This document shows, in pieces, positions 28,375-53,676 of a stretch of 64,000 nt of DNA. Origin of the DNA: Escherichia coli. GTDB lineage: Bacteria > Pseudomonadota > Gammaproteobacteria > Enterobacterales > Enterobacteriaceae. The translations under genes were made by a program, and so were the position numbers. The stretch's first letter is position 1; each line of letters begins with the position of its first letter. The notes beneath the pieces were generated by a model, which was given only the letters and a program-made list of their open reading frames with translations, made no database searches and was not told where the DNA came from. Location of the stretch: the NCBI RefSeq assembly GCF_013122565.1, contig NZ_CP053258.1; one strand, given 5' to 3'.

Positions 28375-29793
28375 TCAGGCTCCTTTCCTCGCTTCTTCAT
28401 ACGCTGCCAGCGTTCGCAGCCTTGCCTCTTTGTGATCAACTATCGGTTGCGGATAATCCAGCATCACACCTGCTTTCTGCGCCCACTTCCACGGCTCATG
28501 CACCGCTTTCCCTGGTACATCGCGCAGCTCCGGTAACCATCGGCGGATAAACTCACCTTCGCGATCAAATTTCTCGCCCTGGGTTGTCGGGTTAAAAATA
28601 CGAAAATACGGCGCAGCATCGGTTCCGGTGGAGGCCGCCCATTGCCAGCCACCGTTATTGGCTGCCAAATCACCATCAATCAGCTGCGACATGAAATATC
28701 GCTCGCCTTCGCGCCAGTCGATCAATAAATCTTTCACCAGAAAACTGGCTGTAATCATCCGTAGCCGGTTATGCATCCAGCCAGTGTTGTTAAGCTGACG
28801 CATGGCGGCATCGACAATCGGGTATCCGGTTTTACCTTCCTGCCAGGCCTGTAAATGGGCGGGATTGCTTTGCCATTGCACGCGGTCGGTCCAGGCAATA
28901 AACGGTCGATGTTTACACAACGAGGGGTAATACGTCATTAGATGACGGTAGAACTCGCGCCAGATCAGCTCATTAAGCCAGACACTACCGGCCCCACCGT
29001 CCAGCGCCTGAGGCTGTTCCGCCAACAGGCGATGCAAACACTGGCGAGGCGATAACCCGCCCGTTGCCAGACTGGCGGACAAACGACTGGTGCCTTCCAC
29101 TGCCGGAAAATCTCGTTGTTGCTCATACTCTCCGGCACCGTTCTGGCAAAACTGGCGTAATTGCGCAATCACCGCTTTTTCTTCCACCGGGAAATGCGCA
29201 GTATCGAAAGACTGACGAGGATAATTCAGCGTAATGGATGGCGCGGGCTCTATCGATCCGCTACTACGAACTTTTGGTGCAGTGACGCACTCCGGCATCC
29301 CTTCCCGCAGCCGTTTCAGCCAGGCATTCTTAAAAGGCGTAAAGACTTTGTACATCTCGTGATTGCCGGTCATCACCGCCCCCGGCGGCAGGATCACGCT
29401 GTCATCAAATCCTTCACACACCACGTTACGCAGCGCCCTCTCAGCCTGCACATCCCGCGCCCGCTCATTCACCTCATACTGATAGTTATAAAACAGATGG
29501 GTAATGCGATTTTCCACGCACACCTGTTTAACTGTTTCGACACTGGCAGCAAAGTCATCCACTTCACGGAACAATAAAGGAATGCCTTTTTCCGCCAGCG
29601 CTATTCGTAGCCCATTCAGTTGCGCATTGATAAATTCAGCCTGACGCGGCGACATATTATGCACTGCCCACTGGCGCGGTGTAGCGATATACAACGCCAG
29701 CACGCGTGCAGACGAATTGCGGCAGGCGGCAGCCAGCGCGAGATTATCATGCAGACGTAAATCCTGGCGAAACCAGACCAGATGGGTAGTCAT
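28375..29793 (-). CDS. phr: Deoxyribodipyrimidine photolyase
   Basis: 472 aa, MTTHLVWFRQDLRLHDNLALAAACRN...; FAD-binding C-terminal domain. Confidence 0.95.
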   Translation of the reverse strand: MTTHLVWFRQDLRLHDNLALAAACRNSSARVLALYIATPRQWAVHNMSPRQAEFINAQLNGLRIALAEKGIPLLFREVDDFAASVETVKQVCVENRITHLFYNYQYEVNERARDVQAERALRNVVCEGFDDSVILPPGAVMTGNHEMYKVFTPFKNAWLKRLREGMPECVTAPKVRSSGSIEPAPSITLNYPRQSFDTAHFPVEEKAVIAQLRQFCQNGAGEYEQQRDFPAVEGTSRLSASLATGGLSPRQCLHRLLAEQPQALDGGAGSVWLNELIWREFYRHLMTYYPSLCKHRPFIAWTDRVQWQSNPAHLQAWQEGKTGYPIVDAAMRQLNNTGWMHNRLRMITASFLVKDLLIDWREGERYFMSQLIDGDLAANNGGWQWAASTGTDAAPYFRIFNPTTQGEKFDREGEFIRRWLPELRDVPGKAVHEPWKWAQKAGVMLDYPQPIVDHKEARLRTLAAYEEARKGA

Positions 29794-30299
29794 AAAGCTC
29801 CTGCATGGCGCAAGTTAATCACACGCGGCCAAAGTTCGAAATAACGCTGCCCTGAAAGCCAGGCGTCAGGATAAAGCGCCATATAGTGTTTGATACGCAT
29901 CAGCGGCGCAAGAAGCGGTTGCTCGCCACGGCGATAACTGTCGATAAGCGCAGCCAGCTGCTGGCGTTCTGTGGAATCAATATGTGGGCGAAAATAACCC
30001 TGAACGTGCATCAAAACGTTGGTGTGATCGCGCGTGTTGGCGGGGTGAGAAAGTAAAACGATTACACGTTGGCGGTACTGGTTGTAATAGTCATCCAGAT
30101 TTTGCCACCGATGAATATCAGCCACAAACGGGCCAAGTTTGCGGTATTCCGGCTGGTAATGCGCCAGAAAGACGAGTTTATAGCGGCTGTGATAATCGTT
30201 GAACGCCCCACGCGTTAGCCCATGTTCTTTCAGTCGATGTAACTCATGAAGGGCGAAGATACGGATTAGGGTGCTTTCATCAAATCGTTGCTGATTCAT
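29790..30299 (-). CDS. ybgA: DUF1722-family protein cotranscribed with photolyase
   Basis: Start trimmed to MNQQRFDESTLIRIFALHELHRLKEHG (169 aa); stop overlaps the phr start. Confidence 0.85.
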   Translation of the reverse strand: MNQQRFDESTLIRIFALHELHRLKEHGLTRGAFNDYHSRYKLVFLAHYQPEYRKLGPFVADIHRWQNLDDYYNQYRQRVIVLLSHPANTRDHTNVLMHVQGYFRPHIDSTERQQLAALIDSYRRGEQPLLAPLMRIKHYMALYPDAWLSGQRYFELWPRVINLRHAGAL

Positions 30300-30400
30300 T
30301 ACTGCTCCTGAACGGTTTACAGGAGTAAGTGTAGACGGCGAAAAGAAAAAAACCGCCAGCGTTTCCACTAGCGGTTTTCAATGTATTCAAAACTCAGCAA

Positions 30401-30607
30401 TCAGTAAAAATCACCGGTTGCCTTTTCGGCCTGATCCATCCAAACCGGTTTATCGCTGGTTTTCGACCAGACGCGATGCAGGTAGCTGTAAAAGCGGGCG
30501 CGGTCTTTCCAGAAAAGCATGAAAGGCAGCGCCAGAACGCCCGCTGCAACCGCATAAGTACGGCGTAAAAAGATAAGCCATGCAGGATATTCTCTGTAGA
30601 GTTCCAT
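30401..30607 (-). CDS. ybfA: Small DUF2517-family protein
   Basis: 68 aa, [68 protein letters not shown]. Confidence 0.8.
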
Positions 30608-30816
30608 ACTTTTCTCCCCCTTTTGTATCTACCCGGTGAATAGCACCGGAAAAATGAATTTGTTTATCTGATGAAAATAGTACCGCCTTTTGTGTAATTT
30701 TACTACTCATCCGACCACTTATTTTTGCTTATTGATGGTTTATTTACATTCATCCTGTAATTAAGTTACACAAAAGTTAAATTAATACTAAACGTTAGTT
30801 AAATCATGGCTTTTGC

Positions 30817-30842
30817 CATTTTTATACTTTTTTTACACCCCG
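30817..30842 (+). promoter_or_regulatory. KdpE-binding site / kdpFABC promoter region
   Basis: CATTTTTATACTTTTTTTACACCCCG upstream of kdpF matches the T-rich KdpE operator as I recall it. Confidence 0.5.
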
Positions 30843-30919
30843 TCCGCAGATTTTTGCGAAATCTTTGCAGCCAGAATTCTACCCTTCCGGTATCACTTTT
30901 AGGCCACTGGAGGTGCACT

Positions 30920-31009
30920 GTGAGTGCAGGCGTGATAACCGGCGTATTGCTGGTGTTTTTATTACTGGGTTATCTGGTTTATGCCCTGATCAATGCGGAG
31001 GCGTTCTGA
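30920..31009 (+). CDS. kdpF: K+-transporting ATPase small subunit F
   Basis: GTG-initiated 29-aa hydrophobic peptide [29 protein letters not shown] with GGAGG upstream; stop overlaps the kdpA ATG (TGATG). Confidence 0.85.
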
Positions 31010-32682
31010 TGGCTGCGCAAGGGTTCTTACTGATCGCCACGTTTTTACTGGTGTTAATGGTGCTGGCGCGCCCTTTAGGCAGCGGGCTGGCGCGGCTGAT
31101 TAATGACATACCTCTTCCCGGTACAGCGGGCGTTGAACGTATACTCTTTCGTTTACCTGGCGTCTCTGACAGTGAGATGAACTGGAAGCAGTATCTCTGT
31201 GCCATTCTCGGCCTGAACATGCTGGGGCTGGCGGTGCTGTTTTTCATGCTGCTCGGTCAGCACTATCTACCGCTTAATCCACAGCAGTTGCTGGGGCTGT
31301 CGTGGGATCTGGCGCTGAATACCGCCGTCAGCTTTGTCACGAATACCAACTGGCAATCTTATAGCGGTGAAACCACGTTGAGCTATTTCAGCCAGATGGC
31401 GGGCTTAACGGTGCAAAACTTTCTTTCTGCCGCCAGCGGGATTGCGGTGATTTTTGCCTTCATCCGTGCATTTACCCGCCAGAGCATGAGCACACTCGGG
31501 AATGCCTGGGTCGATCTGCTACGCATCACGTTATGGGTGCTAGTCCCTGTGGCGTTGTTGATCGCACTGTTTTTTATTCAACAAGGTGCACTGCAAAACT
31601 TTCAGCCTTATCAGGCGGTGAATACCGTTGAAGGAGCGCAACAGCTGTTACCAATGGGTCCGGTGGCTTCTCAGGAAGCGATCAAGATGCTCGGCACTAA
31701 CGGCGGTGGTTTCTTTAATGCCAACTCGTCGCATCCGTTTGAAAACCCAACCGCACTGACCAACTTCGTGCAGATGCTGGCGATCTTCTTGATCCCAACA
31801 GCGCTGTGCTTTGCCTTTGGTGAAGTGACGGGCGATCGCCGTCAGGGGCGCATGTTGCTGTGGGCGATGTCGGTGATTTTTGTCATCTGCGTAGGCGTGG
31901 TGATGTGGGCAGAAGTTCAGGGTAATCCTCATCTGCTGGCGCTGGGTGCGGACAGCAGCATCAATATGGAAGGTAAAGAGAGCCGTTTCGGCGTGCTGGT
32001 CAGTAGCCTGTTTGCGGTCGTGACTACAGCGGCATCCTGTGGCGCGGTGATTGCGATGCATGATTCGTTTACCGCTCTCGGTGGCATGGTGCCGATGTGG
32101 CTGATGCAAATTGGTGAAGTGGTATTCGGCGGTGTCGGTTCTGGTCTTTACGGCATGATGCTGTTTGTCCTGCTGGCGGTGTTTATTGCCGGGCTGATGA
32201 TTGGTCGTACACCGGAATATCTGGGTAAAAAAATCGACGTACGTGAGATGAAACTGACTGCACTGGCGATTCTGGTCACCCCGACGCTGGTGCTGATGGG
32301 CGCGGCGCTGGCAATGATGACCGACGCCGGACGTAGCGCCATGCTCAACCCTGGCCCGCATGGTTTTAGCGAAGTGCTGTACGCCGTGTCATCCGCCGCT
32401 AACAACAACGGCAGCGCCTTTGCCGGATTAAGCGCCAACTCTCCGTTCTGGAACTGTTTACTGGCGTTCTGCATGTTTGTCGGTCGCTTCGGGGTGATTA
32501 TCCCGGTGATGGCAATTGCCGGTTCGCTGGTGAGTAAAAAGAGCCAACCCGCCAGCTCCGGCACGCTGCCAACGCACGGCCCGCTGTTTGTTGGCCTGTT
32601 AATCGGCACCGTGTTGCTGGTTGGCGCACTGACCTTTATCCCTGCCCTGGCGCTTGGTCCGGTGGTGGAATATCTCTCCTGA
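31009..32682 (+). CDS. kdpA: K+-transporting ATPase subunit A
   Basis: Start trimmed to [38 protein letters not shown] (557 aa). Confidence 0.97.
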
Positions 32683-32704
32683 TGATATTGAGTGAGCACT
32701 GAAT

Positions 32705-34753
32705 ATGAGTCGTAAACAACTGGCGCTATTCGAACCAACACTTGTCGTTCAGGCGCTGAAAGAAGCGGTGAAAAAATTAAACCCGCAGGCGCAATGGCGC
32801 AATCCGGTGATGTTTATCGTCTGGATCGGCAGTCTGCTGACCACCTGTATTAGCATCGCGATGGCAAGCGGCGCGATGCCTGGCAATGCGCTGTTTAGCG
32901 CGGCAATTAGCGGCTGGCTGTGGGTCACCGTACTGTTCGCTAATTTCGCCGAGGCGCTGGCAGAAGGCCGCAGTAAAGCGCAGGCCAATAGTCTGAAAGG
33001 GGTGAAAAAAACTGCCTTTGCCCGCAAGCTGCGTGAGCCGAAATATGGCGCTGCGGCGGACAAAGTTCCTGCCGATCAACTGCGTAAAGGCGATATCGTA
33101 CTGGTAGAAGCTGGCGATATTATCCCCTGCGATGGTGAAGTTATTGAAGGGGGCGCATCGGTCGATGAAAGCGCCATCACCGGGGAATCGGCACCGGTTA
33201 TCCGTGAATCCGGCGGCGATTTTGCCTCCGTCACTGGCGGCACGCGTATTCTTTCTGACTGGCTGGTAATTGAGTGCAGCGTTAATCCCGGCGAGACATT
33301 TCTGGATCGGATGATCGCGATGGTGGAAGGCGCACAGCGACGCAAAACGCCGAACGAGATTGCCCTGACCATTCTCCTGATTGCCCTGACTATCGTCTTT
33401 TTACTGGCAACCGCCACGCTGTGGCCGTTTTCCGCGTGGGGCGGTAATGCAGTCAGCGTAACGGTACTGGTGGCGCTGCTGGTCTGTCTGATCCCAACCA
33501 CTATTGGCGGCCTGTTGTCAGCGATCGGCGTCGCCGGGATGAGTCGGATGCTGGGCGCGAATGTGATTGCCACCAGCGGACGTGCAGTTGAAGCGGCGGG
33601 TGACGTTGACGTCCTGCTGCTGGATAAAACCGGCACCATCACACTCGGTAACCGTCAGGCGTCGGAGTTTATCCCTGCGCAGGGCGTGGATGAAAAAACG
33701 CTGGCTAATGCCGCACAACTGGCTTCGCTGGCTGATGAAACGCCGGAAGGCCGCAGTATTGTGATCCTCGCCAAGCAGCGTTTTAATCTGCGCGAGCGCG
33801 ATGTGCAGTCGCTTCACGCCACCTTTGTACCGTTTACTGCGCAAAGCCGGATGAGCGGGATCAACATCGACAACCGCATGATCCGTAAAGGTTCTGTCGA
33901 TGCCATTCGCCGCCATGTTGAGGCTAACGGTGGTCACTTCCCTGCCGATGTTGATCAAAAAGTCGATCAGGTTGCGCGTCAGGGAGCCACGCCGCTGGTG
34001 GTGGTGGAAGGTTCTCGTGTGCTGGGCGTTATTGCGCTGAAAGATATCGTCAAAGGCGGTATTAAAGAGCGCTTCGCCCAGCTGCGTAAAATGGGCATTA
34101 AAACGGTGATGATTACCGGCGATAACCGTCTGACTGCCGCCGCCATTGCTGCGGAAGCGGGCGTCGATGATTTCCTCGCTGAAGCGACACCGGAGGCCAA
34201 GCTGGCATTGATTCGTCAGTATCAGGCGGAAGGCCGTTTGGTGGCGATGACCGGCGACGGCACCAACGATGCTCCGGCGCTGGCGCAGGCAGATGTCGCG
34301 GTGGCGATGAACTCTGGTACTCAGGCGGCGAAAGAAGCGGGCAATATGGTGGATCTCGACTCTAACCCGACCAAGTTGATCGAGGTGGTACATATTGGCA
34401 AACAGATGCTGATGACCCGTGGCTCGCTGACCACCTTCAGCATTGCCAACGATGTGGCGAAATACTTCGCCATTATTCCGGCGGCGTTCGCGGCAACGTA
34501 TCCGCAGTTAAATGCGCTGAACATCATGCGCCTGCATTCGCCCGACTCCGCCATTCTCAGTGCGGTCATTTTCAACGCCTTGATTATCGTCTTTTTGATT
34601 CCCCTGGCGTTAAAAGGCGTGAGTTATAAACCGCTTACCGCTTCTGCCATGTTGCGCCGTAACTTATGGATTTACGGTCTGGGTGGGCTGCTGGTGCCGT
34701 TTATTGGTATCAAAGTCATTGATTTACTGCTGACCGTTTGCGGTCTGGTGTGA
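32705..34753 (+). CDS. kdpB: K+-transporting P-type ATPase subunit B
   Basis: 682 aa with P-type ATPase motifs DKTGTIT and [11 protein letters not shown]. Confidence 0.97.
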
Positions 34754-34761
34754 GGTTTACC

Positions 34762-35334
34762 ATGAGTGGATTACGTCCGGCATTATCGACATTTATCTTT
34801 CTGTTATTGATTACTGGCGGCGTTTACCCGCTGCTGACCACCGTGCTGGGGCAATGGTGGTTTCCCTGGCAGGCCAACGGTTCGTTGATCCGTGAAGGTG
34901 ATACAGTGCGGGGTTCGGCATTAATCGGGCAGAATTTTACTGGCAACGGCTATTTTCATGGTCGCCCGTCGGCAACGGCAGAAATGCCCTATAATCCACA
35001 GGCTTCTGGCGGGAGCAATCTGGCGGTCAGTAACCCTGAGCTGGATAAACTAATAGCCGCACGCATTGCGGCATTACGGGCCGCTAACCCGGATGCCAGC
35101 GCGAGCGTTCCGGTTGAACTGGTGACGGCGTCGGCAAGCGGGCTGGACAATAACATAACCCCGCAAGCGGCGGCCTGGCAAATCCCACGCGTGGCGAAAG
35201 CGCGTAATCTCAGCGTTGAACAGCTCACGCAACTGATCGCAAAATACAGCCAACAACCGCTGGTGAAATATATCGGCCAGCCGGTCGTCAACATTGTTGA
35301 ACTCAATCTGGCGCTGGATAAGCTTGATGAATAA
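34762..35334 (+). CDS. kdpC: K+-transporting ATPase subunit C
   Basis: Start trimmed to [27 protein letters not shown] (190 aa). Confidence 0.95.
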
Positions 35335-38011
35335 CGAACCCTTACGTCCCGACCCCGACCGTCTGCTGGAACAAACTGCCGCGCCGCATCGGGGGAAGCT
35401 GAAAGTTTTCTTCGGTGCCTGTGCAGGCGTCGGGAAGACCTGGGCGATGCTGGCAGAAGCCCAGCGACTGCGGGCGCAAGGGCTGGATATTGTGGTTGGC
35501 GTGGTAGAAACCCACGGGCGAAAAGATACCGCCGCCATGCTGGAAGGGCTGGCTGTTCTGCCGTTAAAACGCCAGGCGTACCGTGGGCGGCATATCAGCG
35601 AGTTTGATCTCGATGCCGCCCTCGCCCGCCGCCCGGCGCTGATCTTAATGGACGAACTGGCGCACAGTAATGCGCCAGGTTCTCGTCATCCTAAACGCTG
35701 GCAGGATATCGAAGAACTGCTGGAAGCTGGCATTGATGTTTTCACAACCGTCAACGTTCAGCATCTGGAAAGTCTGAATGATGTGGTCAGCGGCGTCACC
35801 GGAATTCAGGTACGGGAAACCGTGCCCGATCCTTTTTTCGATGCCGCCGACGACGTGGTTCTGGTGGACTTGCCCCCGGACGATCTGCGCCAGCGGCTGA
35901 AAGAAGGCAAAGTCTATATTGCCGGGCAGGCGGAGCGCGCCATTGAACATTTTTTCCGCAAAGGCAATCTGATCGCCCTGCGCGAACTGGCACTGCGCCG
36001 TACTGCTGATCGCGTTGATGAGCAAATGCGCGCCTGGCGGGGGCATCCTGGCGAAGAGAAAGTGTGGCACACGCGCGACGCGATCCTTTTATGCATCGGC
36101 CATAACACCGGCAGCGAAAAACTGGTCCGCGCAGCGGCGCGGCTGGCGTCACGGCTGGGTAGCGTCTGGCACGCGGTGTATGTTGAAACCCCTGCCCTGC
36201 ATCGCTTACCGGAGAAAAAACGTCGGGCAATTCTCAGCGCCTTACGTCTGGCGCAGGAGCTGGGCGCGGAGACGGCAACACTTTCTGATCCAGCGGAAGA
36301 GAAAGCGGTAGTGCGTTATGCCCGTGAACATAATCTCGGCAAGATTATTCTCGGTCGCCCAGCCTCGCGCCGCTGGTGGCGTCGGGAAACGTTTGCTGAC
36401 CGACTGGCGCGCATCGCTCCCGATCTCGATCAGGTGCTGGTCGCGCTTGATGAACCACCCGTCCGCACGATTAACAACGCGCCGGATAGCCGCTCTTTTA
36501 AAGACAAGTGGCGGGTACAGATTCAGGGATGCGTGGTTGCCGCCGCGTTATGCGCCGTTATCACCTTAATTGCTATGCAGTGGCTGATGGCGTTTGATGC
36601 CGCCAACCTGGTGATGCTGTATCTGCTTGGCGTGGTGGTGGTCGCGCTATTTTATGGACGCTGGCCTTCGGTGGTTGCTACCGTCATTAATGTGGTGAGT
36701 TTCGATCTCTTTTTTATCGCCCCACGCGGCACGCTCGCCGTCTCTGATGTGCAATATCTGCTGACCTTCGCGGTGATGTTAACCGTCGGGCTGGTGATCG
36801 GGAACCTTACTGCGGGTGTGCGTTATCAGGCGCGGGTAGCCCGTTACCGCGAGCAACGCACACGGCACTTATATGAAATGTCGAAAGCTCTGGCGGTGGG
36901 CCGCAGTTCGCAGGACATCGCCGCCACCAGCGAACAATTTATTGCCTCCACGTTTCATGCCCGCAGTCAGGTGTTGTTGCCCGATGACAACGGTAAATTG
37001 CAGCCGTTAACACATCCGCAAGGAATGACGCCGTGGGACGATGCCATCGCGCAGTGGAGTTTTGATAAAGGCCTGCCTGCGGGTGCGGGCACCGACACGT
37101 TACCCGGCGTGCCGTACCAGATTTTGCCGTTAAAAAGCGGTGAGAAAACCTACGGGCTGGTGGTGGTGGAACCGGGGAATCTGCGTCAGTTGATGATCCC
37201 GGAACAGCAGCGCCTGCTGGAGACGTTTACGCTGTTAGTCGCCAATGCGCTTGAGCGGCTGACGCTGACCGCCAGCGAAGAACAGGCGCGGATGGCAAGC
37301 GAACGGGAACAGATCCGCAACGCCCTGCTGGCGGCGCTTTCGCATGATTTACGCACTCCGCTTACGGTGCTGTTCGGTCAGGCAGAAATCTTAACGCTCG
37401 ATCTGGCAAGCGAAGGATCGCCCCACGCCCGCCAGGCCAGCGAGATCCGTCAGCACGTGCTGAACACTACCCGACTGGTGAATAATCTACTGGATATGGC
37501 GCGAATTCAGTCCGGCGGCTTTAATTTGAAGAAAGAGTGGTTAACGCTGGAAGAAGTAGTCGGCAGCGCGCTGCAAATGCTGGAACCGGGTTTATCGTCG
37601 CCCATCAATCTTTCTCTGCCAGAACCGCTGACCTTAATCCACGTTGACGGGCCACTCTTTGAACGGGTGCTGATTAATCTGCTGGAGAACGCGGTGAAAT
37701 ACGCGGGTGCGCAGGCCGAAATTGGGATCGATGCCCACGTTGAGGGCGAAAATCTACAACTGGATGTCTGGGATAACGGCCCCGGTCTTCCGCCAGGCCA
37801 GGAGCAGACGATATTTGATAAGTTTGCTCGCGGGAATAAAGAGTCGGCAGTACCGGGGGTAGGGCTTGGGCTGGCAATTTGTCGGGCGATAGTGGATGTA
37901 CACGGGGGCACTATTACCGCGTTCAACCGACCGGAAGGTGGTGCCTGTTTTCGTGTTACACTTCCCCAGCAAACCGCTCCTGAACTTGAAGACTTTCATG
38001 AGGATATGTGA
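35327..38011 (+). CDS. kdpD: Sensor histidine kinase KdpD
   Basis: Start trimmed to [41 protein letters not shown] (894 aa); Walker A, USP domain, four TM helices, HisKA (LSHDLRTPL) and HATPase domains. Confidence 0.97.
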
Positions 38012-38685
38012 CAAACGTTCTGATTGTTGAAGATGAACAGGCTATTCGTCGCTTTCTGCGCACGGCGCTGGAGGGCGACGGTATGCGCGTCTTTGAGGCC
38101 GAAACGCTGCAACGCGGCTTGCTGGAAGCGGCAACCCGTAAGCCAGATTTGATTATTCTCGATCTCGGCCTGCCCGACGGTGATGGGATTGAGTTTATCC
38201 GCGACCTGCGCCAGTGGAGCGCGGTGCCGGTGATTGTGCTTTCCGCACGCAGCGAAGAGAGCGACAAAATCGCCGCGCTGGATGCCGGAGCGGATGATTA
38301 TCTGAGTAAGCCGTTTGGCATTGGCGAATTGCAGGCCCGTCTGCGCGTCGCATTACGCCGCCACTCTGCCACCACCGCGCCCGATCCGCTGGTGAAATTT
38401 TCCGATGTTACCGTCGATTTAGCCGCCCGCGTGATCCATCGCGGTGAGGAAGAGGTGCATCTCACCCCGATTGAGTTTCGCCTGCTGGCAGTGCTGCTCA
38501 ACAACGCCGGAAAAGTACTCACCCAGCGCCAGTTACTCAATCAGGTGTGGGGGCCAAACGCGGTCGAACACAGTCACTATTTGCGTATTTATATGGGACA
38601 TCTGCGACAAAAACTGGAACAGGATCCCACTCGCCCCCGCCATTTCATTACTGAAACCGGTATTGGGTATCGGTTTATGCTTTGA
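38008..38685 (+). CDS. kdpE: Response regulator KdpE (OmpR family)
   Basis: 225 aa; receiver domain (ILDLGLPDGDG) and winged-helix output; 4-bp overlap with kdpD. Confidence 0.97.
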   Translation: MTNVLIVEDEQAIRRFLRTALEGDGMRVFEAETLQRGLLEAATRKPDLIILDLGLPDGDGIEFIRDLRQWSAVPVIVLSARSEESDKIAALDAGADDYLSKPFGIGELQARLRVALRRHSATTAPDPLVKFSDVTVDLAARVIHRGEEEVHLTPIEFRLLAVLLNNAGKVLTQRQLLNQVWGPNAVEHSHYLRIYMGHLRQKLEQDPTRPRHFITETGIGYRFML

Positions 38686-38808
38686 AAAAAGTGGCAATGT
38701 ATGGATAAAGTCATTTTTTATTCAAATATAAGGAACTTAATATTTAAAAAATGTTCCATACAATTCCTCATCATAAATGACACCGTAGCACACAAGGAGC
38801 AAGTAGCG

Positions 38809-39459
38809 ATGCGTGAAATAAATCAGTTAGTAAATACTGAAGATTCAGCCTGGCCAATAATCCAGAACTGGTTAAAAGACGCCACAAACCATACCGAACT
38901 CTTACCGGTTAATAAAGATTTAGCCGAAACCGCACTTTATCAATTACAGGTGACAACAAAATCACCGATGGGTGCGCTTGTCTATGGCTCCGGAGGTCTA
39001 CTGATTGATAATGGTTGGTTACGCATAGCAGGCTCTGGTCACCCCCGGTTGCCACGAGATCCAGTAAGTTGGACACAACGCCCTGAATTCGCAGGCGTGC
39101 GGGCTTTACCCATCGCTGACGATGTCGCAGGGGGAATTTTTGCTCTTAATGGTGGCGATCTTGGGGAAGATACTGGCTGCGTTTATTATTTTGCGCCAGA
39201 TACGCTGAATTGGGAAAGTCTGGAAGTTGGATATTCTGAGTTTCTTCAGTGGGCATTATCCGGTGATTTAGATACCTTCTATGAAAATGTACGATGGCAG
39301 CAATGGCGAGAAGACGTAATAAAATTATCGGCAACGGAAGCCTTCACGTTCTACCCTTTCTTATGGGTACAAAGTGAAGAAGCAAGAACAAGAAAAGTTA
39401 TTTCGCTTACTGAACTCTGGGAAATGCAGTATCAAATGAAAGAAACATTCACTCAATAA
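38809..39459 (+). CDS. Hypothetical protein, probably the intact counterpart of K-12 ybfG
   Basis: 216-aa ORF starting MREINQLVNTEDSAWPIIQNW with AAGGAG Shine-Dalgarno; position between kdpE and ybfP. The ybfG assignment is from positional memory only. Confidence 0.55.
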   Translation: MREINQLVNTEDSAWPIIQNWLKDATNHTELLPVNKDLAETALYQLQVTTKSPMGALVYGSGGLLIDNGWLRIAGSGHPRLPRDPVSWTQRPEFAGVRALPIADDVAGGIFALNGGDLGEDTGCVYYFAPDTLNWESLEVGYSEFLQWALSGDLDTFYENVRWQQWREDVIKLSATEAFTFYPFLWVQSEEARTRKVISLTELWEMQYQMKETFTQ

Positions 39460-39499
39460 GACATGTTCAGGTCCGGGTTTCATTCCCGGACTCACTATT

Positions 39500-39994
39500 T
39501 TAATGTGTGTTTATCGCTTTCAATTCTTGCTGGCATTTTTCTGACTGGCAGCGTCGCAACTCAATAATCCCGACATGCATCATCGAGCCAAAAAATCCGC
39601 TTTCGCTGACATAATCCTCATTGACTATCGGTCGAGTGCCGGGCTTGCCCTGGCAAACCCGCATAAAAAATGAGGTGTAGCATTGCCAACCGGGATTTAA
39701 ACCGACCTTTTCTTGTGCTGACATATCGTGAAGATAAGTAAGTTCTTTTTCGTTCCCGCCTGACAACTGCCAGCTGCGGGTATTATCAGGTAAGTTATCG
39801 CCACGGCAATTTGTCTTACACCGGGAAGGTGCAATATTTACCGCAATGCTACCCGTTAATCCTCTGGTTTTATCTTTAGGGGTCAGTAACCAGTCGCCAG
39901 CTAATGATGATTGTTCAGGTTGGGCGCATGCAGTCAGCAGTAATGTGGCGGTAATTAGTGACACTATGACGACCAGACTCCTGTTGGTCTTCAT
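39500..39994 (-). CDS. ybfP: Lipoprotein
   Basis: 164 aa with signal peptide and lipobox (LLLTAC). Confidence 0.85.
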   Translation of the reverse strand: MKTNRSLVVIVSLITATLLLTACAQPEQSSLAGDWLLTPKDKTRGLTGSIAVNIAPSRCKTNCRGDNLPDNTRSWQLSGGNEKELTYLHDMSAQEKVGLNPGWQCYTSFFMRVCQGKPGTRPIVNEDYVSESGFFGSMMHVGIIELRRCQSEKCQQELKAINTH

Positions 39995-40043
39995 TGGGAT
40001 TTCCTTGAGCTACTCAGTTTGTTGACAAAGTGTTCGTTGTTTT

Positions 40044-40142
40044 TGCCGGATGCGGCGTGAACGCCTTATCCGGCCTACAAAATCGCGTAAATTCAATATA
40101 TTGCACCATCCTCGTAGGCCTGATAAGCGTAGCGCATCAGGC
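40044..40142. repeat. REP pair (BIME) between ybfP and pgm
   Basis: GCCGGATGCGGCGTGAACGCCTTATCCGGCCTAC and the inverted unit GTAGGCCTGATAAGCGTAGCGCATCAGGC. Confidence 0.85.
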
Positions 40143-40208
40143 AATTCTGTGTTTGTCATACGTAAAAAAGGGCGATCTTCTGACCGCCCTTTTTCTTATT
40201 TAATGTGT

Positions 40209-41849
40209 TTACGCGTTTTTCAGAACTTCACTAACAATCTCAACCGCTTCTTTCTCGATCTGCTTGCGATGTTCTTCACCGAGGAAGCTTTCGCAATAAA
40301 TCTTGTACGCGTCTTCCGTGCCTGACGGACGCGCGGCGAACCAGCCGTTGTCAGTCATCACTTTCAGACCGCCGATAGAAGCACCGTTGCCCGGTGCCGC
40401 CGTCAGGCGCGCGGTGATCGGGTCGCCTGCCAGGGTGCTGGCGCTCACCATTTCCGGAGACAGCTTAGACAGCGCCGCTTTTTGTGCGGAAGTCGCAGCT
40501 GCCTGCAAACGGTTGTAGCTCGGCGCACCAAAGCGTTTTGCCAGTTCGTTGTAGTGTTCCTGCGGATTCTTACCGGTGACAGCGGTGATTTCCGCCGCCA
40601 GCAGACACATGATGATGCCGTCTTTGTCGGTGGACCATGGCGTGCCGTCGAAACGCAGGAAGGAAGCCCCTGCGCTCTCTTCGCCGCCAAAGCCGAAGCT
40701 GCCGTCGAACAGACCATCAACAAACCATTTGAAACCTACCGGGACTTCTACCAGCTTACGGCCCAAGTCATTGACCACACGGTCGATCATCGCAGAAGAA
40801 ACCAGCGTTTTACCGACAGCAACATCTTTGCCCCACTGCGGACGATGCTGGAACAGGTAGTTGATCGCCACCGCCAGGTAGTGGTTCGGATTCATCAAAC
40901 CTGCCGGAGTGACGATACCGTGACGGTCATAATCCGGGTCGTTAGCAAACGCCAGATCGAACTTATCACGCAGTGCCAGCAGGCCCGCCATCGCACACTC
41001 GGAGGAGCAGTCCATACGGATCGCGCCGTCTTTATCAAGGTGCATAAAGCGGAACGTTTGATCGACCTGATCGTTAACGATAGTCAGGTTGAGGTTGTAA
41101 TACTCGCCAATACGCTTCCAGTATTCGATACCGGAACCGCCCAGCGGATCAACGCCAAGCGTCAGGCCCGCCTTCTGAATCGCCGCCATATCAACGATAT
41201 CGGCCAGCCCTTCCACGAACGGCTGCACCAGATCCTGCTCTTTCACATGACCGGATGCCATCGCTTCGTCGAGGGAGATACGCTTCACGCCTTTCAGGCC
41301 ATCGGCCAGCAGTGCGTTGGCACGATCTTCCACCACTTTAGTGACGTTGGTATCAGCCGGGCCACCATTTGGCGGATTGTACTTGATACCACCATCTTCC
41401 GGCGGGTTATGGGACGGTGTAATCACGATACCGTCTGCCAGCGGGCCACCTTTTTTATTGTGAACCAGGATGGCATTGGAAACGGCAGGCGTCGGGGTGA
41501 AGCCATTGTTTTCCTGCACAATAACATCTACGCCGTTCGCTGCCAGCACTTCCAGAACGGAAATAAATGCAGGTTCGGACAGGGCGTGAGTATCTTTACC
41601 CACATAGCAAGGGCCAGTGATGCCGTTTTTCGCACGTTCTTCAGCAATTGCCTGAGCGATCGCCAGAATGTGCGGCTCGTTAAAGCTGTGGCGCGCTGCA
41701 CTGCCACGGTGACCGGAAGTACCGAATTTCACCGCGTGCTCCGCATTCCCTGCTTCTGGTTTCAGTACATAATATTGCGCCGTCAGTTGGGCGACGTTAA
41801 TCAAATCACTCTGTTGTGCAGGTTGGCCTGCACGATTGTGGATTGCCAT
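40209..41849 (-). CDS. pgm: Phosphoglucomutase
   Basis: Start trimmed to [28 protein letters not shown] (546 aa); active-site TPSHNP motif present. Confidence 0.97.
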
Positions 41850-41874
41850 TGCTTTGTCCTTTGTCTGCAACGTG

Positions 41875-42420
41875 TTAGATAGTTCCGCAAACCTTCTCAA
41901 TCAATTCCGCCGGGAATTGCATCGACTGCATGATGTGTTCGATCATGCTGCATTTACGGCCGGTGTTGGTGTTGGTGATCACCCAATACGGCGTGCCTGG
42001 CACATGTTTCGGCTTGGTCTGATTACCATTTTTCAGCAGCGTTTGTTCATCTGCCGCAAAGTAAACGCGCGTACGACCGTGCAACGATTCCGTTGCTTCG
42101 GCAAACGCCTGGGCGTCAAGAGAATATAGTGTAGACAACAGCAGCATAAAGCGATTGACCGCTCGCTTTTGCTCTGCGTATTCATCCGAAAGCAGAAGTT
42201 CACGCATTGCGCGAACCTTGTCTTTAATCGTTTTGACCGGCTTCGCTTCGACGATAGCAGGTGACGCAACGCGAACCTCTTTCGTCACCGGAGCAGCAGG
42301 CTGTGATGCGGCGGAAAATTTCAACATACGCCGTAAAATGTCGGATGCGCTCTCGCCGATATGCTTAGTGTGGCTGGCAATATAGCTGTAGAGTTCATCA
42401 TCAACTTCAATCGTTTTCAT
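41875..42420 (-). CDS. seqA: Replication initiation negative regulator SeqA
   Basis: Start trimmed to [35 protein letters not shown] (181 aa). Confidence 0.95.
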
Positions 42421-42604
42421 CTTAATCCAGTGCAGTGTCTTAGCTGAATACAAGTCGCCAGGAGTATATGAATAAATCCCGGCAGCGGATAGCGTCAAGC
42501 CTGGCTTGCAGAAAAACTCGGAATAAACCTTATTTGTTGCAGCCCTGTGGCACAATGGTCAACATAATACCCTAACCCGACAACGCGAAAAAAAGAACTT
42601 TGCC

Positions 42605-43369
42605 ATGAAATTGAATATCCGCGCGCAAACTGCACAAAACCAGCACAATAATTCTCCCATCGTTCTTGTCCACGGTCTGTTTGGCAGCCTCGACAACCTT
42701 GGCGTACTGGCTCGCGATCTGGTAAACGATCACAATATCATCCAGGTTGATATGCGTAACCACGGTCTTTCACCGAGAGATCCGGTAATGAATTACCCGG
42801 CGATGGCGCAGGATCTTGTTGATACTCTGGATGCACAGCAGATCGACAAAGCAACATTTATCGGTCACTCCATGGGCGGTAAAGCGGTAATGGCACTTAC
42901 TGCACTGGCCCCCGATCGCATCGATAAACTGGTGGCGATCGATATCGCGCCGGTCGACTATCACGTACGCCGTCATGATGAGATTTTCGCGGCTATCAAC
43001 GCGGTCAGTGAATCGGACGCACAAACTCGCCAGCAAGCAGCAGCAATAATGCGCCAGCATCTTAATGAAGAAGGGGTGATTCAGTTTCTGTTGAAATCTT
43101 TTGTTGACGGGGAGTGGCGCTTTAACGTGCCGGTATTGTGGGATCAGTATCCGCATATTGTGGGTTGGGAGAAAATCCCGGCATGGGATCACCCTGCCCT
43201 GTTTATCCCTGGCGGCAATTCTCCGTATGTTAGCGAGCAGTACCGTGATGATTTACTGGCACAATTTCCACAGGCACGGGCGCATGTGATTGCAGGCGCG
43301 GGTCACTGGGTCCATGCTGAAAAACCGGATGCGGTATTACGCGCTATCCGTCGCTATCTCAATGATTAA
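42605..43369 (+). CDS. ybfF: Alpha/beta-hydrolase esterase
   Basis: 254 aa, GHSMGG nucleophile elbow. Confidence 0.9.
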   Translation: MKLNIRAQTAQNQHNNSPIVLVHGLFGSLDNLGVLARDLVNDHNIIQVDMRNHGLSPRDPVMNYPAMAQDLVDTLDAQQIDKATFIGHSMGGKAVMALTALAPDRIDKLVAIDIAPVDYHVRRHDEIFAAINAVSESDAQTRQQAAAIMRQHLNEEGVIQFLLKSFVDGEWRFNVPVLWDQYPHIVGWEKIPAWDHPALFIPGGNSPYVSEQYRDDLLAQFPQARAHVIAGAGHWVHAEKPDAVLRAIRRYLND

Positions 43370-43508
43370 CGCAACTGATTAAAAACCCAGCGTCCGCGTC
43401 GCTTTCCGCGCGTGGGCGTTGGCGTGACTCATCGCGCTGATGTATTATGGCGCGCTATCCATCCGGGCAGAGGCCTGGCTGATTGTTTCCCCCGAAGTCA
43501 CCAAGATC

Positions 43509-43802
43509 ATGGCCAAAGAACAAACGGACCGTACGACATTAGATCTGTTCGCGCACGAGCGTCGACCGGGACGACCGAAAACTAATCCGCTTTCGCGCGA
43601 TGAACAGCTGCGTATTAATAAACGCAACCAGCTAAAACGCGACAAAGTACGTGGCCTTAAGCGTGTCGAACTGAAGCTGAACGCGGAAGCTGTCGAGGCG
43701 CTGAACGAGCTGGCGGAATCGCGCAATATGAGCCGTAGCGAACTGATCGAAGAGATGTTAATGCAGCAACTGGCGGCGCTGCGTAGTCAGGGCATCGTTT
43801 AA
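43509..43802 (+). CDS. ybfE: CopG-like small DNA-binding protein
   Basis: Start trimmed to [33 protein letters not shown] (97 aa). Confidence 0.8.
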
Positions 43803-43941
43803 ATTTCCACTTTCATGTAGCACAGTGTGCAGTCCTGCTCGTTTGCTGATTCCGCAAGACTGCCTGTTCTGCTATGATTGCCTTTATCCGTGGGCAATTT
43901 TCCACCCCCATTTCAATAAGTTTCAAGAGGTTATTTCACTC

Positions 43942-44472
43942 ATGGCTATCACTGGCATCTTTTTCGGCAGCGACACCGGTAATACCGAAAATATCGCAAA
44001 AATGATTCAAAAACAGCTTGGTAAAGACGTTGCCGATGTCCATGACATTGCAAAAAGCAGCAAAGAAGATCTGGAAGCTTATGACATTCTGCTGCTGGGC
44101 ATCCCAACCTGGTATTACGGCGAAGCGCAGTGTGACTGGGATGACTTCTTCCCGACTCTCGAAGAGATTGATTTCAACGGCAAACTGGTTGCGCTGTTTG
44201 GTTGTGGTGACCAGGAAGATTACGCCGAATATTTCTGCGACGCATTGGGCACCATCCGCGACATCATTGAACCGCGCGGTGCAACCATCGTTGGTCACTG
44301 GCCAACTGCGGGCTATCATTTCGAAGCATCAAAAGGTCTGGCTGATGACGACCACTTTGTCGGTCTGGCTATCGACGAAGACCGTCAGCCGGAACTGACC
44401 GCTGAACGTGTAGAAAAATGGGTTAAACAGATTTCTGAAGAGTTGCATCTCGACGAAATTCTCAATGCCTGA
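43942..44472 (+). CDS. fldA: Flavodoxin 1
   Basis: Start trimmed to [27 protein letters not shown] (176 aa), FMN-binding signature. Confidence 0.97.
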
Positions 44473-44672
44473 TGTGATGCGGCGTAGACTCATGTCTACG
44501 CCGTATTAATAGATAATGCCAATCAAAATAATTGCTACAAATTTGTAACTTTTGCTGTTGTACCTGTACAATGTCCCGGTGTTCAAGTGGCCTTGCCGTT
44601 GTAAATGTAAGCTGTGCCACGTTTTTATTAACAATATTTGCCAGGGACTTGTGGTTTTCATTTAGGCGTGGC

Positions 44673-44691
44673 AATTCTATAATGATACGCA
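44673..44691 (+). promoter_or_regulatory. Fur box at the uof/fur promoter
   Basis: TATAATGATACGCATTATC closely matches the 19-bp Fur consensus GATAATGATAATCATTATC and overlaps the uof start codon. Confidence 0.6.
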
Positions 44692-44768
44692 TTATCTCAA
44701 GAGCAAATTCTGTCACTTCTTCTAATGAAGTGAACCGCTTAGTAACAGGACAGATTCCGCATGACTGA
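44682..44768 (+). CDS. uof: Upstream ORF of fur (leader peptide)
   Basis: 28-aa ORF MIRIISRANSVTSSNEVNRLVTGQIPHD whose stop (44766-44768) overlaps the fur ATG at 44761. Confidence 0.7.
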   Translation: MIRIISRANSVTSSNEVNRLVTGQIPHD

Positions 44769-45207
44769 TAACAATACCGCCCTAAAGAAAGCTGGCCTGA
44801 AAGTAACGCTTCCTCGTTTAAAAATCCTGGAAGTTCTTCAGGAGCCGGACAACCATCACGTCAGTGCGGAAGATTTATACAAACGTCTGATCGATATGGG
44901 TGAAGAAATTGGTCTGGCTACGGTATATCGCGTACTGAACCAGTTTGACGATGCTGGTATCGTCACCCGCCACAATTTTGAAGGCGGTAAATCCGTATTT
45001 GAACTGACACAGCAACATCACCACGATCACCTGATCTGCCTCGACTGCGGCAAGGTTATCGAATTTAGTGATGATTCCATCGAAGCGCGTCAGCGTGAAA
45101 TTGCCGCAAAACATGGCATTCGCCTGACTAACCACAGTCTCTATCTTTACGGTCACTGTGCCGAAGGCGATTGCCGCGAAGATGAGCACGCGCACGAAGG
45201 CAAATAA
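44761..45207 (+). CDS. fur: Ferric uptake regulator
   Basis: 148 aa, MTDNNTALKKAGLKVTLPRLKILEVLQEPDNHHVSAEDLYKRLIDMGEEIGLATVYRVLNQF... Confidence 0.98.
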   Translation: MTDNNTALKKAGLKVTLPRLKILEVLQEPDNHHVSAEDLYKRLIDMGEEIGLATVYRVLNQFDDAGIVTRHNFEGGKSVFELTQQHHHDHLICLDCGKVIEFSDDSIEARQREIAAKHGIRLTNHSLYLYGHCAEGDCREDEHAHEGK

Positions 45208-45291
45208 GCCAGCCTGAATGAGAAAAAGCCAACCTGCAGGTTGGCTTTTTTATGCAAGGAAAATAAGAAAAGCGAGAGTTACAGCTCTCTC

Positions 45292-45618
45292 TTATTTGTT
45301 ATTACTGCGAATTTCCTGCCAAACTTTATCACAATCGGCTTTCACCGCCTGATCATTTCCGGTTTGCGTTGCACGCAGACACTGCTGATAATCCAGTACG
45401 CGTACACTTTCCTGGTCGGCAAACTGCTGATGTTGTTTCTCTTTCTTCAGCACGTTTAACACGCTCTGGCAGGCTTCAATTTTTTCCGGCGAACCTTGCG
45501 CGGTGTTGATACAGGCGCTGTATGCCTCTTTCAGACGGCTGTCTTCCTGTGGCGCGGTTGATTGCGCACAAGCCACCAGCCCCGATGCCATCATGGCGAT
45601 GAGAATCAGTTTTTTCAT
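45292..45618 (-). CDS. chiQ: Chitosugar-induced lipoprotein
   Basis: 108 aa, signal peptide with lipobox (LVAC). Confidence 0.85.
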   Translation of the reverse strand: MKKLILIAMMASGLVACAQSTAPQEDSRLKEAYSACINTAQGSPEKIEACQSVLNVLKKEKQHQQFADQESVRVLDYQQCLRATQTGNDQAVKADCDKVWQEIRSNNK

Positions 45619-45667
45619 AGCGAATTCCTCAAATGTGCGGCAGGCACAAAACCTGCCGCGTCGGGCA

Positions 45668-47074
45668 TCAGAAGATGGTGAATGGTGCGATTACCATAAA
45701 TTTCACGTCACGCTCATCCTGGAAGATGTTACCGTAACCGCCGCCCCAGCTTGGGATGTCAGAGTGGTTGTCGTATTCGGTGAAATGCAGTTTGAACATC
45801 GTGCCTTTGGCGCGGCCGTCCTGAATGGTGTAGACCGCATCCAGGCTGTATGCAGACTCTTCAATAGTCCGGTTTTTGTCGTAGTACGCATCCGGATTGC
45901 TCTGCCAGGTCGCAGGTTTTGCATCCCATGCGTAAACGTAGGAAGCGCCGATGGCGAAGCCTGGAAGATTCCAGTTTTTCAGGTCATACATCGCACCGAA
46001 GAAGACCGCTTTTTCGCCGTTGGCGTTGAAGTCAGAACGGTTATCCCACCAGATATCCAGGCGACCATTCGAGGAAGCGTAGGTTGGGGTCATACGTTGC
46101 AGGAAGTATCCCTGCTGACCGTCAGCCTTAACCCAGGTGCCTTCGAGGCGCAAATCCACTACGTCAGCCGCCCGGTAACCAAAGGTCAACGCTTGCAGCC
46201 AGGCGGTGCCGTCATAAAGATCGTTGACGCTGCGATCGTCAACTTTATCGCGCGTACCATAGAACTGATAGCTGGTGGTTAACGGGCTACCGGCGATATC
46301 AAATTTGTAGCTGGCTTTGGCAAAATATTGATCGATATACCCTTCCGCCTGACCAAACGCCGCTTCCAGTACGAAGTTATTTTTGAAGTCGTATTTCGCC
46401 CCAAGGGAGTGCAGATAATCAACTTTGGTGGTTTTATCGTTCTGATAAAACTCATCCATTTCCAGGTGCCACGGCGCTTTGTATTCGTTGGTCCACATGT
46501 AGGAGAAACTCAAGGCACCAGCATCGCCGTAATCAAAATTCGCTCCGGCTTCCGCACCCTGATAAGTACCTGGCATAAAGCTCCAGTGCGGCGCTAACAG
46601 CGTCTGACCGGTTGGCTGAATATAACCTGCCCTCGCCCAAACCGGACCGTATTTAAATTTGGCCGCAGCTTTATACAGGCTTATACCGCTTTTGTCGCCG
46701 GACCAGTCTTCGTCATAGGCTTTATTACTTTTTGAAAACGCGATTTCGTTCGGGTGAGAGCTGTCGCCGTTTTCCGCCATTTCAATCGCCGTAAACGCAG
46801 CAATATCAAGGCCGAACATATCAGCAGCATAACCGGACTGAAAATCGAGGTTGGCATTCCAGGTGGAGTGAGAAAGGTTGGTTTTGTATTTGTCGCCGTC
46901 GGTAACATCTTTACGGTCGCGTTCACGCTGCCAGTAATAGATACCGCCGGTTAAGGTTGAATCGTCGATGAATCCTTCGGCGCGAGCCTCCGGCATTGCC
47001 ATAAAGCCCGACATTGCTGTAACACCGGCGATAGCCAGCGCCAGCGTACTACGTTTGCCACTAAACGTACGCAT
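45668..47074 (-). CDS. chiP: Chitoporin (OprD-family outer-membrane porin)
   Basis: 468 aa, signal peptide, beta-barrel with C-terminal aromatic residue. Confidence 0.9.
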
Positions 47075-47521
47075 GGGTTAATCCTCTTTGACGTATAAAT
47101 TGCTGCACCAAAGGTGAACAGCGAAAAAATAAAAATTAAAAAAGTAGCGTTGAGAAAAGTCTCGCTGACTACAGGAACAGACTATTTTTCGCGACGCGAA
47201 TTATCAATCTCTTTCTGTAACCAGAATGTAAGAACATGAGCAACCGCACATATTTTGATGATTTTTGTTACAAGGCTTAAGTTTGCGGTTGAAAGGCTTG
47301 CAGAAGAATAAAAGCGTGAAATTCCAGCAAGATGAAAGCGGTTACATTTTATTTAATTATGTTTTGTGATTTTAAATTTATTTTATGGATAAATTGCGAA
47401 GCGGAATTAATTCGCGAAGAAAAGCAGAAAAAAACGCCGCAGAGCGCGGCGTTTGGGATTGTTTGCATATTTCTTGCCGGATGTGGCGTAAATGCCTCAC
47501 CCGGCCTGGTAGAACTTAAAA

Positions 47522-49186: not shown

Positions 49187-49388
49187 CGTGGATTCCTCAA
49201 AGCGTAAACAACGTATAACGGCGTATGATCTTATAAGCGGGACAGGCTGACAACTGTTAGTTAGTGAAAATCGAAAATCTCACTGAGATTATGGGGATGA
49301 TTGATGAAAAAAAAAGCGGCAGAGAAGATCTCCACCGCTTGTCATTGTTGGATGCGACGCTCAAGCGTCGCATCAGGCATAAAGCAGA

Positions 49389-51335: not shown

Positions 51336-51456
51336 CTTATTCCCCCTACGAGAACCCTAATTGGCTCGTTTAAAGCCGTATTTTTATTTTGCTGCAAATT
51401 GTACTGCCGATGTTCTGTAATCAGATTGTTAGATCATCTGCTACAGAGTGTGTGAA

Positions 51457-51575
51457 AATTTAATTCGTATCGCAAATTAAACGCGTGTCTTTTGTGAGTT
51501 TTGTCACCAAATATCGTTATCATCACTCCCTTTTACTGGCTAAACCAGAAAACTTATTTTATCATTCAAAAAATC
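51457..51575. promoter_or_regulatory. nagE-nagBACD divergent control region: two NagC operators flanking a CRP site
   Basis: Palindromic TTAATTCGTATCGCAAATTAA (about 51461-51482); CRP-like TGTGAGTTTTGTCACC (51493-51508); CTTATTTTATCATTCAAAAAATC (about 51553-51575). Matches the loop-forming architecture as I recall it. Confidence 0.6.
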
Positions 51576-51667
51576 AGGTCGGATTGACGCCTGTCTGCGC
51601 AAATCCAGGTTACGCTTAAAGATGCCTAATCCGCCAACGGCTTACATTTTACTTATTGAGGTGAATA

Positions 51668-53676
<2,009 letters not shown>

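Follow-up and report, generated by a model that had tools for sequence, protein, structure and literature searches.

The window, by which we mean the whole 64,000-nucleotide stretch of Escherichia coli DNA analyzed here, very probably carries the standard Escherichia kdpFABC-kdpDE locus in a layout unchanged relative to E. coli K-12, with gene overlaps of a common and catalogued kind. Judged from geometry alone, translational coupling by termination and reinitiation is plausible at kdpF/kdpA, kdpC/kdpD, and kdpD/kdpE. Among these three overlaps it appears most plausible for kdpD, which lacks a recognizable Shine-Dalgarno sequence (SD).

The kdp genes and their surroundings

An earlier note on this DNA identified the genes as kdpFABCDE, and matches to six NCBIfam equivalog models bear this out. 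All six Kdp proteins score above the model cut-offs with full-length matches, and the list of open reading frames and the comparison with K-12 give the gene order F-A-B-C-D-E on a single strand, with uninterrupted frames:

30920-31009, plus strand: kdpF, 29 aa, GTG start, TGA stop; NF011332, 76.7 bits (cut-off 56); strong SD GGAGG upstream, anti-SD duplex -10.6 kcal/mol
31009-32682, plus strand: kdpA, 557 aa; TIGR00680, 998.8 bits (cut-off 387.7), full length
32705-34753, plus strand: kdpB, 682 aa, P-type ATPase subunit; TIGR01497, 1279.8 bits (cut-off 527.9)
34762-35334, plus strand: kdpC, 190 aa; TIGR00681, 334.8 bits (cut-off 152.55)
35327-38011, plus strand: kdpD, 894 aa, sensor histidine kinase; NF007793, 1836.4 bits (cut-off 1123), aligned 1-894
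38008-38685, plus strand: kdpE, 225 aa, response regulator, GTG start; NF007820, 487.6 bits (cut-off 325)

Although its title named kdpE, the earlier note ended the operon at 38011, which is the end of kdpD, and so omitted kdpE, which runs to 38685.

The description of the operon as complete and intact holds. E. coli K-12 MG1655 (b4513, b0698-b0694) has the same six genes in the same order, with the same lengths and the same start and stop codons, and no frame in the window contains an internal stop. K-12 and the window align without gaps for 8340 nt at 97.7-97.9% identity (BLAST), with 97-100% nucleotide identity per kdp gene (100% for kdpF), and the codon differences across the kdp genes comprise 153 synonymous and 22 nonsynonymous changes. 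Each of the six frames is thus intact and evolves under purifying selection, and the ribosome-binding sites are likewise conserved. The 22 amino acid substitutions include 12 in KdpA, with a clustered patch at residues 40-55, one in KdpC, and one in KdpE (A208T). Catalytic and regulatory residues that are kept include, in KdpB, D307 of the DKTGT motif along with S162, the latter of established importance (PMC11018627); H673 of KdpD; and D52 of KdpE together with its DNA-contact residues R193, R200, and T215 (importance in PMC3264566).

The flanks differ from those of K-12 MG1655, in that the window is without the RhsC island upstream and without speFL-speF-potE downstream. The Rhs-less neighboring junction mentioned in the earlier note is real, as found by BLAST of the window against K-12 and by a count across 5426 complete E. 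coli genomes, 1310 of which have ybgA and ybfA in the contiguous arrangement. Downstream of kdpE, absence of speFL-speF-potE as seen here is rare among E. coli genomes. The best-matching complete E. coli genome reaches only 97.6% identity over kdp and 98.7% over pgm-nagE, and an exact 60-mer taken at the kdpE/ybfG junction does not occur in any GTDB species representative. The features between the upstream junction and kdpF are as follows:

30338-30379: Rhs-free junction, ybgA to ybfA, with nine unaligned bases (30338-30346) where K-12 has the 9.6-kb RhsC island (BLAST against K-12)
30348-30379, minus strand: ybfA terminator-like hairpin (terminator scan)
30821-30837, plus strand: KdpE operator, TTTATA (30821-30826) and TTTACA (30832-30837), 5 bp apart, upstream of the kdpFABC promoter

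The KdpE half-sites have been experimentally defined (PMC3264566). In the alignment the operator is identical to that of K-12, the nearest substitution (30843) lying outside the minimal 21-bp site. Loss of the neighboring Rhs island and, on the opposite flank, of speF-potE has not affected the kdp operon or its control region.

Junction geometry and ribosome-binding sites

Reading of the sequence and the list of open reading frames place the five junctions as follows:

31007-31011, plus strand: kdpF/kdpA junction, TGATG, 1-nt overlap (-1), as in K-12; kdpA has its own SD, GGAGG inside kdpF, anti-SD -9.5 kcal/mol
32683-32704, plus strand: kdpA/kdpB spacer, 22 nt, non-overlapping, as in K-12; weak SD-like GAGTGAG, anti-SD -4.7 kcal/mol
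34754-34761, plus strand: kdpB/kdpC spacer, 8 nt, as in K-12; SD GAGGT overlapping the kdpB stop, anti-SD -6.3 kcal/mol
35327-35334, plus strand: kdpC/kdpD overlap, 8 nt, ATGAATAA (-8), as in K-12
38006-38011, plus strand: kdpD/kdpE junction, AUGUGA; overlap GTGA at 38008-38011, 4 nt (-4); kdpE has its own SD, anti-SD -6.1 kcal/mol

The three overlaps are exactly as the earlier note gave them. Its statement that coupling runs throughout the operon goes too far, as only three of the five junctions are overlaps: stop and start lie within an overlap at F/A, C/D, and D/E, and are separated by gaps of 22 nt at kdpA/kdpB and 8 nt, a borderline distance, at kdpB/kdpC. All five distances (-1, +22, +8, -8, -4) match those tabulated for K-12 in the supplement of PMC10666635, and the junction cores are those of K-12, with only single substitutions, each at least 4 nt away from any start or stop codon.

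The three kdp overlaps are therefore already known, being the same as those catalogued for E. coli K-12, and they are not special, representing no more than chance or custom gives. No distance classes are commoner among unidirectional gene pairs of E. coli than these three, -4, -1, and -8 (PMC10666635), and further overlaps of 1-4 nt occur in the same K-12 neighborhood, at potE/speF, ybgA/phr, rhsC/ybfB, and ybfO/ybfC. The kdp overlaps fall into the classes of the reinitiation-coupled pairs studied by Huber et al. 2019, 2023 (PMC6728339, PMC10666635), and F/A links subunits of the same heteromeric complex, a kind of pair in which overlaps are reported to be enriched. A/B and B/C likewise link complex subunits, but without overlap. 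C/D and D/E are rated "not complex" in the table of PMC10666635, and the pairs tested there include no kdp pair.

The start of kdpE is a GUG inside AUGUGA, in which the last kdpD codon (AUG), the kdpE start, and the kdpD stop (UGA) are interleaved. This resembles the ambiguous AUGUG/GUGUG initiation sites with A4 described in PMC9841429, where termination-reinitiation at AUGUGA-type sites was demonstrated with reporters and where K-12 kdpE is listed among the atGTG-starting genes, with SD GAGG and DtoStart 12 (Table 2). At such sites the 5' AUG competes as a start; at kdpE this AUG doubles as the final sense codon of kdpD, and ribosomes therefore arrive at it mainly through elongation. No start-site ambiguity is predicted for kdpE (PMC9841429).

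Conservation of the junctions was assessed in a small sample of loci from a plasmid collection and in the published table of COG pairs (PMC10666635 supplement). The kdpD/kdpE overlap is conserved in eight of the nine taxa examined, its 4-nt form also occurring in Klebsiella, Proteus, and three of four alphaproteobacterial loci, and for the KdpD-OmpR COG pair a distance of about -3.4 to -4 is typical in 1,695 genomes. For kdpC/kdpD the values are +3 (Klebsiella), +4 (Proteus), +87 (Azospirillum), and +216 (L. plantarum), with a typical COG-pair distance of about +20. In the loci examined, conservation of the C/D and F/A distances does not extend beyond close relatives, and so the overlap itself is not under strong selection at these two junctions.

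Coupling and the alternatives to it

A literature search found no experiment on translational coupling at any kdp junction. On the proposed mechanism, a ribosome ending kdpF could reinitiate at the kdpA AUG that overlaps the kdpF stop and is also served by a strong SD belonging to kdpA itself, and kdpB and kdpC would be initiated from their own SDs within the short spacers. Coupling at kdpA/kdpB is unlikely, since the 22-nt spacer falls in the range in which termination-reinitiation was measured as nearly abolished in E. coli (PMC10666635). The kdpE GUG could be used either by reinitiation after the kdpD UGA or by fresh, SD-guided initiation. Dependence on ribosomes that terminate at kdpC would be likeliest for kdpD, which has no SD and an AUG 8 nt before the kdpC stop; such dependence would tie KdpD output to synthesis of the pump on readthrough transcripts.

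The strongest alternative is that the overlaps have no coupling role, and have arisen neutrally from genome compaction and the chance placement of starts and stops. All downstream genes would then be initiated afresh by free 30S subunits, with kdpD merely poorly translated, as would fit a low-copy sensor. We consider this somewhat unlikely overall. It is favored by the good SDs of kdpA, kdpC, and kdpE (-9.5, -6.3, and -6.1 kcal/mol), which make independent initiation of these genes possible; by the variation of C/D and F/A in other taxa, where they range from overlaps to gaps of 2-216 nt; by the abundance of such distances, with about a quarter (24%) of E. coli unidirectional pairs lying between -8 and +6 (PMC10666635); and by the lack of structure in the junction regions, which would leave them open to free ribosomes. 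However, the anti-SD pairing of kdpD (-3.1 kcal/mol, against a mean of -2.45 for random positions) is not above background, and the D/E overlap is kept from Enterobacterales to Alphaproteobacteria and Bacillota. Further, when three native overlapping pairs of E. coli were tested with reporters, downstream translation was in every case strongly dependent on termination near the start codon (PMC10666635).

Coupling could instead operate through RNA unfolding, with downstream ribosome-binding sites locked in structure and opened only by a ribosome translating the upstream gene. This is one of two accepted coupling models (PMC12548453), and part of the AUGUGA region is base-paired in the minimum-free-energy fold of the D/E junction. 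It is nevertheless very improbable here: all five 120-nt junction segments fold no better than dinucleotide-shuffled versions of themselves (z 0.02 to 0.96, with 98-168 of 200 shuffles folding at least as well as the native segment), so that no stable structure hiding the downstream ribosome-binding site is indicated at any of them (z >= 0), and a search of 29500-40200 against Rfam gave zero matches. We give almost no credence to the view that start-codon choice or sequencing error has created the apparent intactness or the overlaps, as, despite upstream alternative starts in the open reading frame lists (e.g., TTG at 35294 for kdpD and TTG at 30865 in the kdpA frame), the chosen starts match the K-12 N-termini residue for residue, the equivalog models align from position 1, the Klebsiella and Proteus homologs begin at homologous codons, and the K-12 alignment has no gap.

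Transcription and the supply of KdpD

Scans of 30300-39600 for promoters and terminators gave counts no higher than in shuffled sequence, and the promoter scan missed the activator-dependent kdpF promoter. In the same scan no promoter-like site was seen on the plus strand of the kdpC interior and no strong terminator-like site at the kdpC/kdpD junction; a relaxed promoter scan inside kdpC returned 8-of-12 matches only (e.g., 35216-35245), which are too weak to serve as evidence. A weak promoter belonging to kdpDE itself reportedly also lies inside kdpC, as Polarek et al. are said to have described in 1992. On transcripts from such a promoter kdpD could not be coupled to kdpC.

In the K-12 literature, the promoter ahead of kdpF is switched on by phosphorylated KdpE when K+ is limiting, and readthrough then co-induces kdpDE within the same transcription unit as kdpFABC (PMC7657598, PMC3739934). 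Most kdpFABC transcripts end before kdpD, according to Altendorf 1992 as cited in PMC5401905. KdpD is also a serine kinase that turns the pump off via KdpB S162, and its expression by readthrough has been argued to be important for making enough kinase to inhibit the pump (PMC11018627). We tentatively propose, as a possibility that is less than even, that on readthrough transcripts kdpD is translated almost only by ribosomes that have just completed kdpC, and that translation would thereby set a fixed KdpD-to-pump ratio.

Confirmation of the locus indicates that the strain carries a Kdp system that looks functional from its sequence. The kdp overlaps are textbook operon features, tabulated for K-12, and the result in itself matters little. 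As the sole gene of the locus without a ribosome-binding site of its own, kdpD makes the kdpC/kdpD junction the best place for a test of coupling. If kdpD is indeed translated by ribosomes that have just finished kdpC, the C/D overlap of Escherichia would have a functional rationale, through a mechanism of a kind that is not new.

Gene junctions of kdpFABCDE

The six kdp genes of the window meet at five successive junctions (F/A to D/E), three of which are overlaps and two gaps.

The kdp genes, with anti-Shine-Dalgarno (anti-SD) duplex energies (random-position mean -2.45 kcal/mol), and their junctions
30920-31009, + strand: kdpF, GTG start; -10.6 kcal/mol
31009-32682, + strand: kdpA; -9.5 kcal/mol
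32705-34753, + strand: kdpB; -4.7 kcal/mol
34762-35334, + strand: kdpC; -6.3 kcal/mol
35327-38011, + strand: kdpD; -3.1 kcal/mol
38008-38685, + strand: kdpE, GTG start; -6.1 kcal/mol
31007-31011, + strand: F/A, 1-nt overlap, TGATG
32683-32704, + strand: A/B, 22-nt spacer
34754-34761, + strand: B/C, 8-nt spacer
35327-35334, + strand: C/D, 8-nt overlap, ATGAATAA
38008-38011, + strand: D/E, 4-nt overlap, GTGA, inside AUGUGA

An earlier note had described translational coupling throughout this operon. Its specifics are accurate, the overlaps of 1, 8 and 4 nt at F/A, C/D and D/E being right to the base, but its title is overstated: overlap geometry does not extend to A/B and B/C, and the range it gave, 30920-38011, ends with kdpD and leaves kdpE outside.

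The overlaps are neither beyond chance nor new. The E. coli K-12 MG1655 (K-12) annotation has the same five junction distances, tabulated for that strain as kdpF-kdpA -1, kdpA-kdpB +22, kdpB-kdpC +8, kdpC-kdpD -8, and kdpD-kdpE -4 (Huber et al. 2023, PMC10666635, supplementary table), and the junction cores are identical, the only changes close by being single substitutions that stay 4 nt or more away from every start and stop codon. Among unidirectional E. coli gene pairs, a distance of -4 occurs most often, with -1 and -8 next, and 707 of 2,987 pairs (24%) fall between -8 and +6 (PMC10666635). A published list of genes with a GUG start in AUGUG context also includes K-12 kdpE, with the SD GAGG (PMC9841429, Table 2). 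The locus is an ordinary kdp system, already described.

Integrity of the operon and its flanks

The note's further claim, that the operon is complete and intact, is well supported at the sequence level by comparison with K-12: 8340 nt align ungapped at ~97.7% identity; gene lengths, start codons, and stop codons from kdpF to kdpE all equal the annotation; and inspection of the reading frames found no internal stop in any of the six genes. All six Kdp proteins pass their NCBIfam equivalog cut-offs at full length, and key residues are kept (KdpB D307 and S162; KdpD H673; KdpE D52, R193, R200, and T215). Amino-acid differences from K-12 number 0 in KdpF, 12 in KdpA, 4 in KdpB, 1 in KdpC, 4 in KdpD, and 1 in KdpE, and the 153 synonymous against 22 nonsynonymous codon differences indicate purifying selection on the kdp genes. 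Three positions differ in the 312-bp ybfA-kdpF spacer, leaving untouched the half-sites TTTATA and TTTACA of the KdpE operator. Within kdpA, codons 40-55 (31126-31173) carry 11 nucleotide differences in 48 nt, with no indel, giving five amino-acid changes (T40A, V45I, A49L, L50P, R55S), none of which K-12, TOK-001, or CUWW10 shares; a more distant donor may have contributed this patch as a short recombination tract.

Upstream, the Rhs-less junction that had been pointed out holds against K-12. Between ybfA and ybgA (30338-30379), the 9.6-kb RhsC island that K-12 has there, from rhsC to ybfD, is cleanly absent, and nine bases (30338-30346) lie between the ybgA and ybfA flanks. This arrangement, shared by 1310 of the 5426 complete E. 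coli genomes, is therefore a common polymorphism. Less common is the absence downstream (38540-38810, from the kdpE 3' end to the start of the DUF2625 gene) of speFL-speF-potE, which in K-12, as in almost every E. coli, comes next after kdpE. Here the sequence directly after the kdpE stop is the one that follows ybfI in K-12 (41/41 nt identical), ybfI being a pseudogene copy (~145 nt, 90% identical) of the kdpE 3' end; of the 14 sites at which the two copies differ, the window has the kdpE base at 12. Contiguous kdpE-DUF2625 is found in only one of the 5426 genomes (CUWW10), with IS1 between them in three more. In Klebsiella aerogenes, pgm directly follows kdpE. An ancestral empty site and a deletion between the two repeats both fit this sequence; kdpE itself is unaffected.

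The DUF2625 gene (ybfG; 38809-39459, + strand) is a full-length open reading frame, open also in TOK-001 and CUWW10, whereas the K-12 annotation gives it as a pseudogene. kdpE and the DUF2625 gene have no terminator-like site between them; the first comes at 39470-39492. GTDB species representatives lack a 60-mer taken from the kdpE/ybfG junction, and no complete RefSeq E. coli genome reaches 99% identity over the regions compared (30000-39000 and 40200-52000), the highest values being 97.6% for kdp and 98.7% for pgm-nagE. The window appears to come from an Escherichia lineage without close representation among complete E. coli genomes.

Possible coupling and conservation of the junctions

In the reporter assays described for three native E. 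coli pairs, reinitiation drops steeply with distance, by 80-100% at 38 nt, and the abstract states that ~20 nt almost abolishes coupling (PMC10666635). Given this dependence, termination-reinitiation is unlikely across the 22-nt kdpA/kdpB spacer. The geometry allows coupling at three junctions and disfavors it at one, and coupling at three of the five is a reasonable inference. Duplex energies make initiation on their own possible for kdpA, kdpC, and kdpE; among the six genes, kdpD alone lacks a recognizable SD and is thus the strongest candidate for translation that relies on ribosomes ending at kdpC. Coupling of the unfolding type is unsupported, as none of the five junction RNA segments is more folded than its shuffles (z-scores 0.02 to 0.96). 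An Rfam search of the kdp region returned no family matches.

A weak kdpDE promoter was reportedly sited inside kdpC by Polarek et al. in 1992. In K-12, KdpE ChIP-exo gave kdpDE no peak of its own, yet kdpDE was differentially expressed with kdpABC, which the authors read as one transcription unit (PMC7657598), and RNA polymerase occupancy rises across kdpFABCDE at low K+ (PMC3739934). Altendorf (1992), as cited in PMC5401905, proposed that the majority of transcripts end before kdpD. Coupling of kdpD to kdpC can only apply on readthrough transcripts.

Junctions, annotated or placed by homology, were also read in K. aerogenes, Proteus mirabilis, Azospirillum, Rhizobium etli, Novosphingobium, Acetobacter, Listeria grayi, and Lactiplantibacillus plantarum. 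D/E overlaps by 4-11 nt in eight of nine taxa, Escherichia included, and A/B and B/C are gaps in every case examined; distances are -8, +3, +4, -4, -1, +87, and +216 at C/D and -1, -1, +2, +2, +10, and +12 at F/A. This small sample agrees with published COG-pair distances (KdpD-OmpR about -3.4, KdpA-KdpB +14, KdpB-KdpC +12, KdpC-KdpD about +20; PMC10666635). Judged by these distances, D/E looks to be the only conserved overlap, those at F/A and C/D being lineage-specific.
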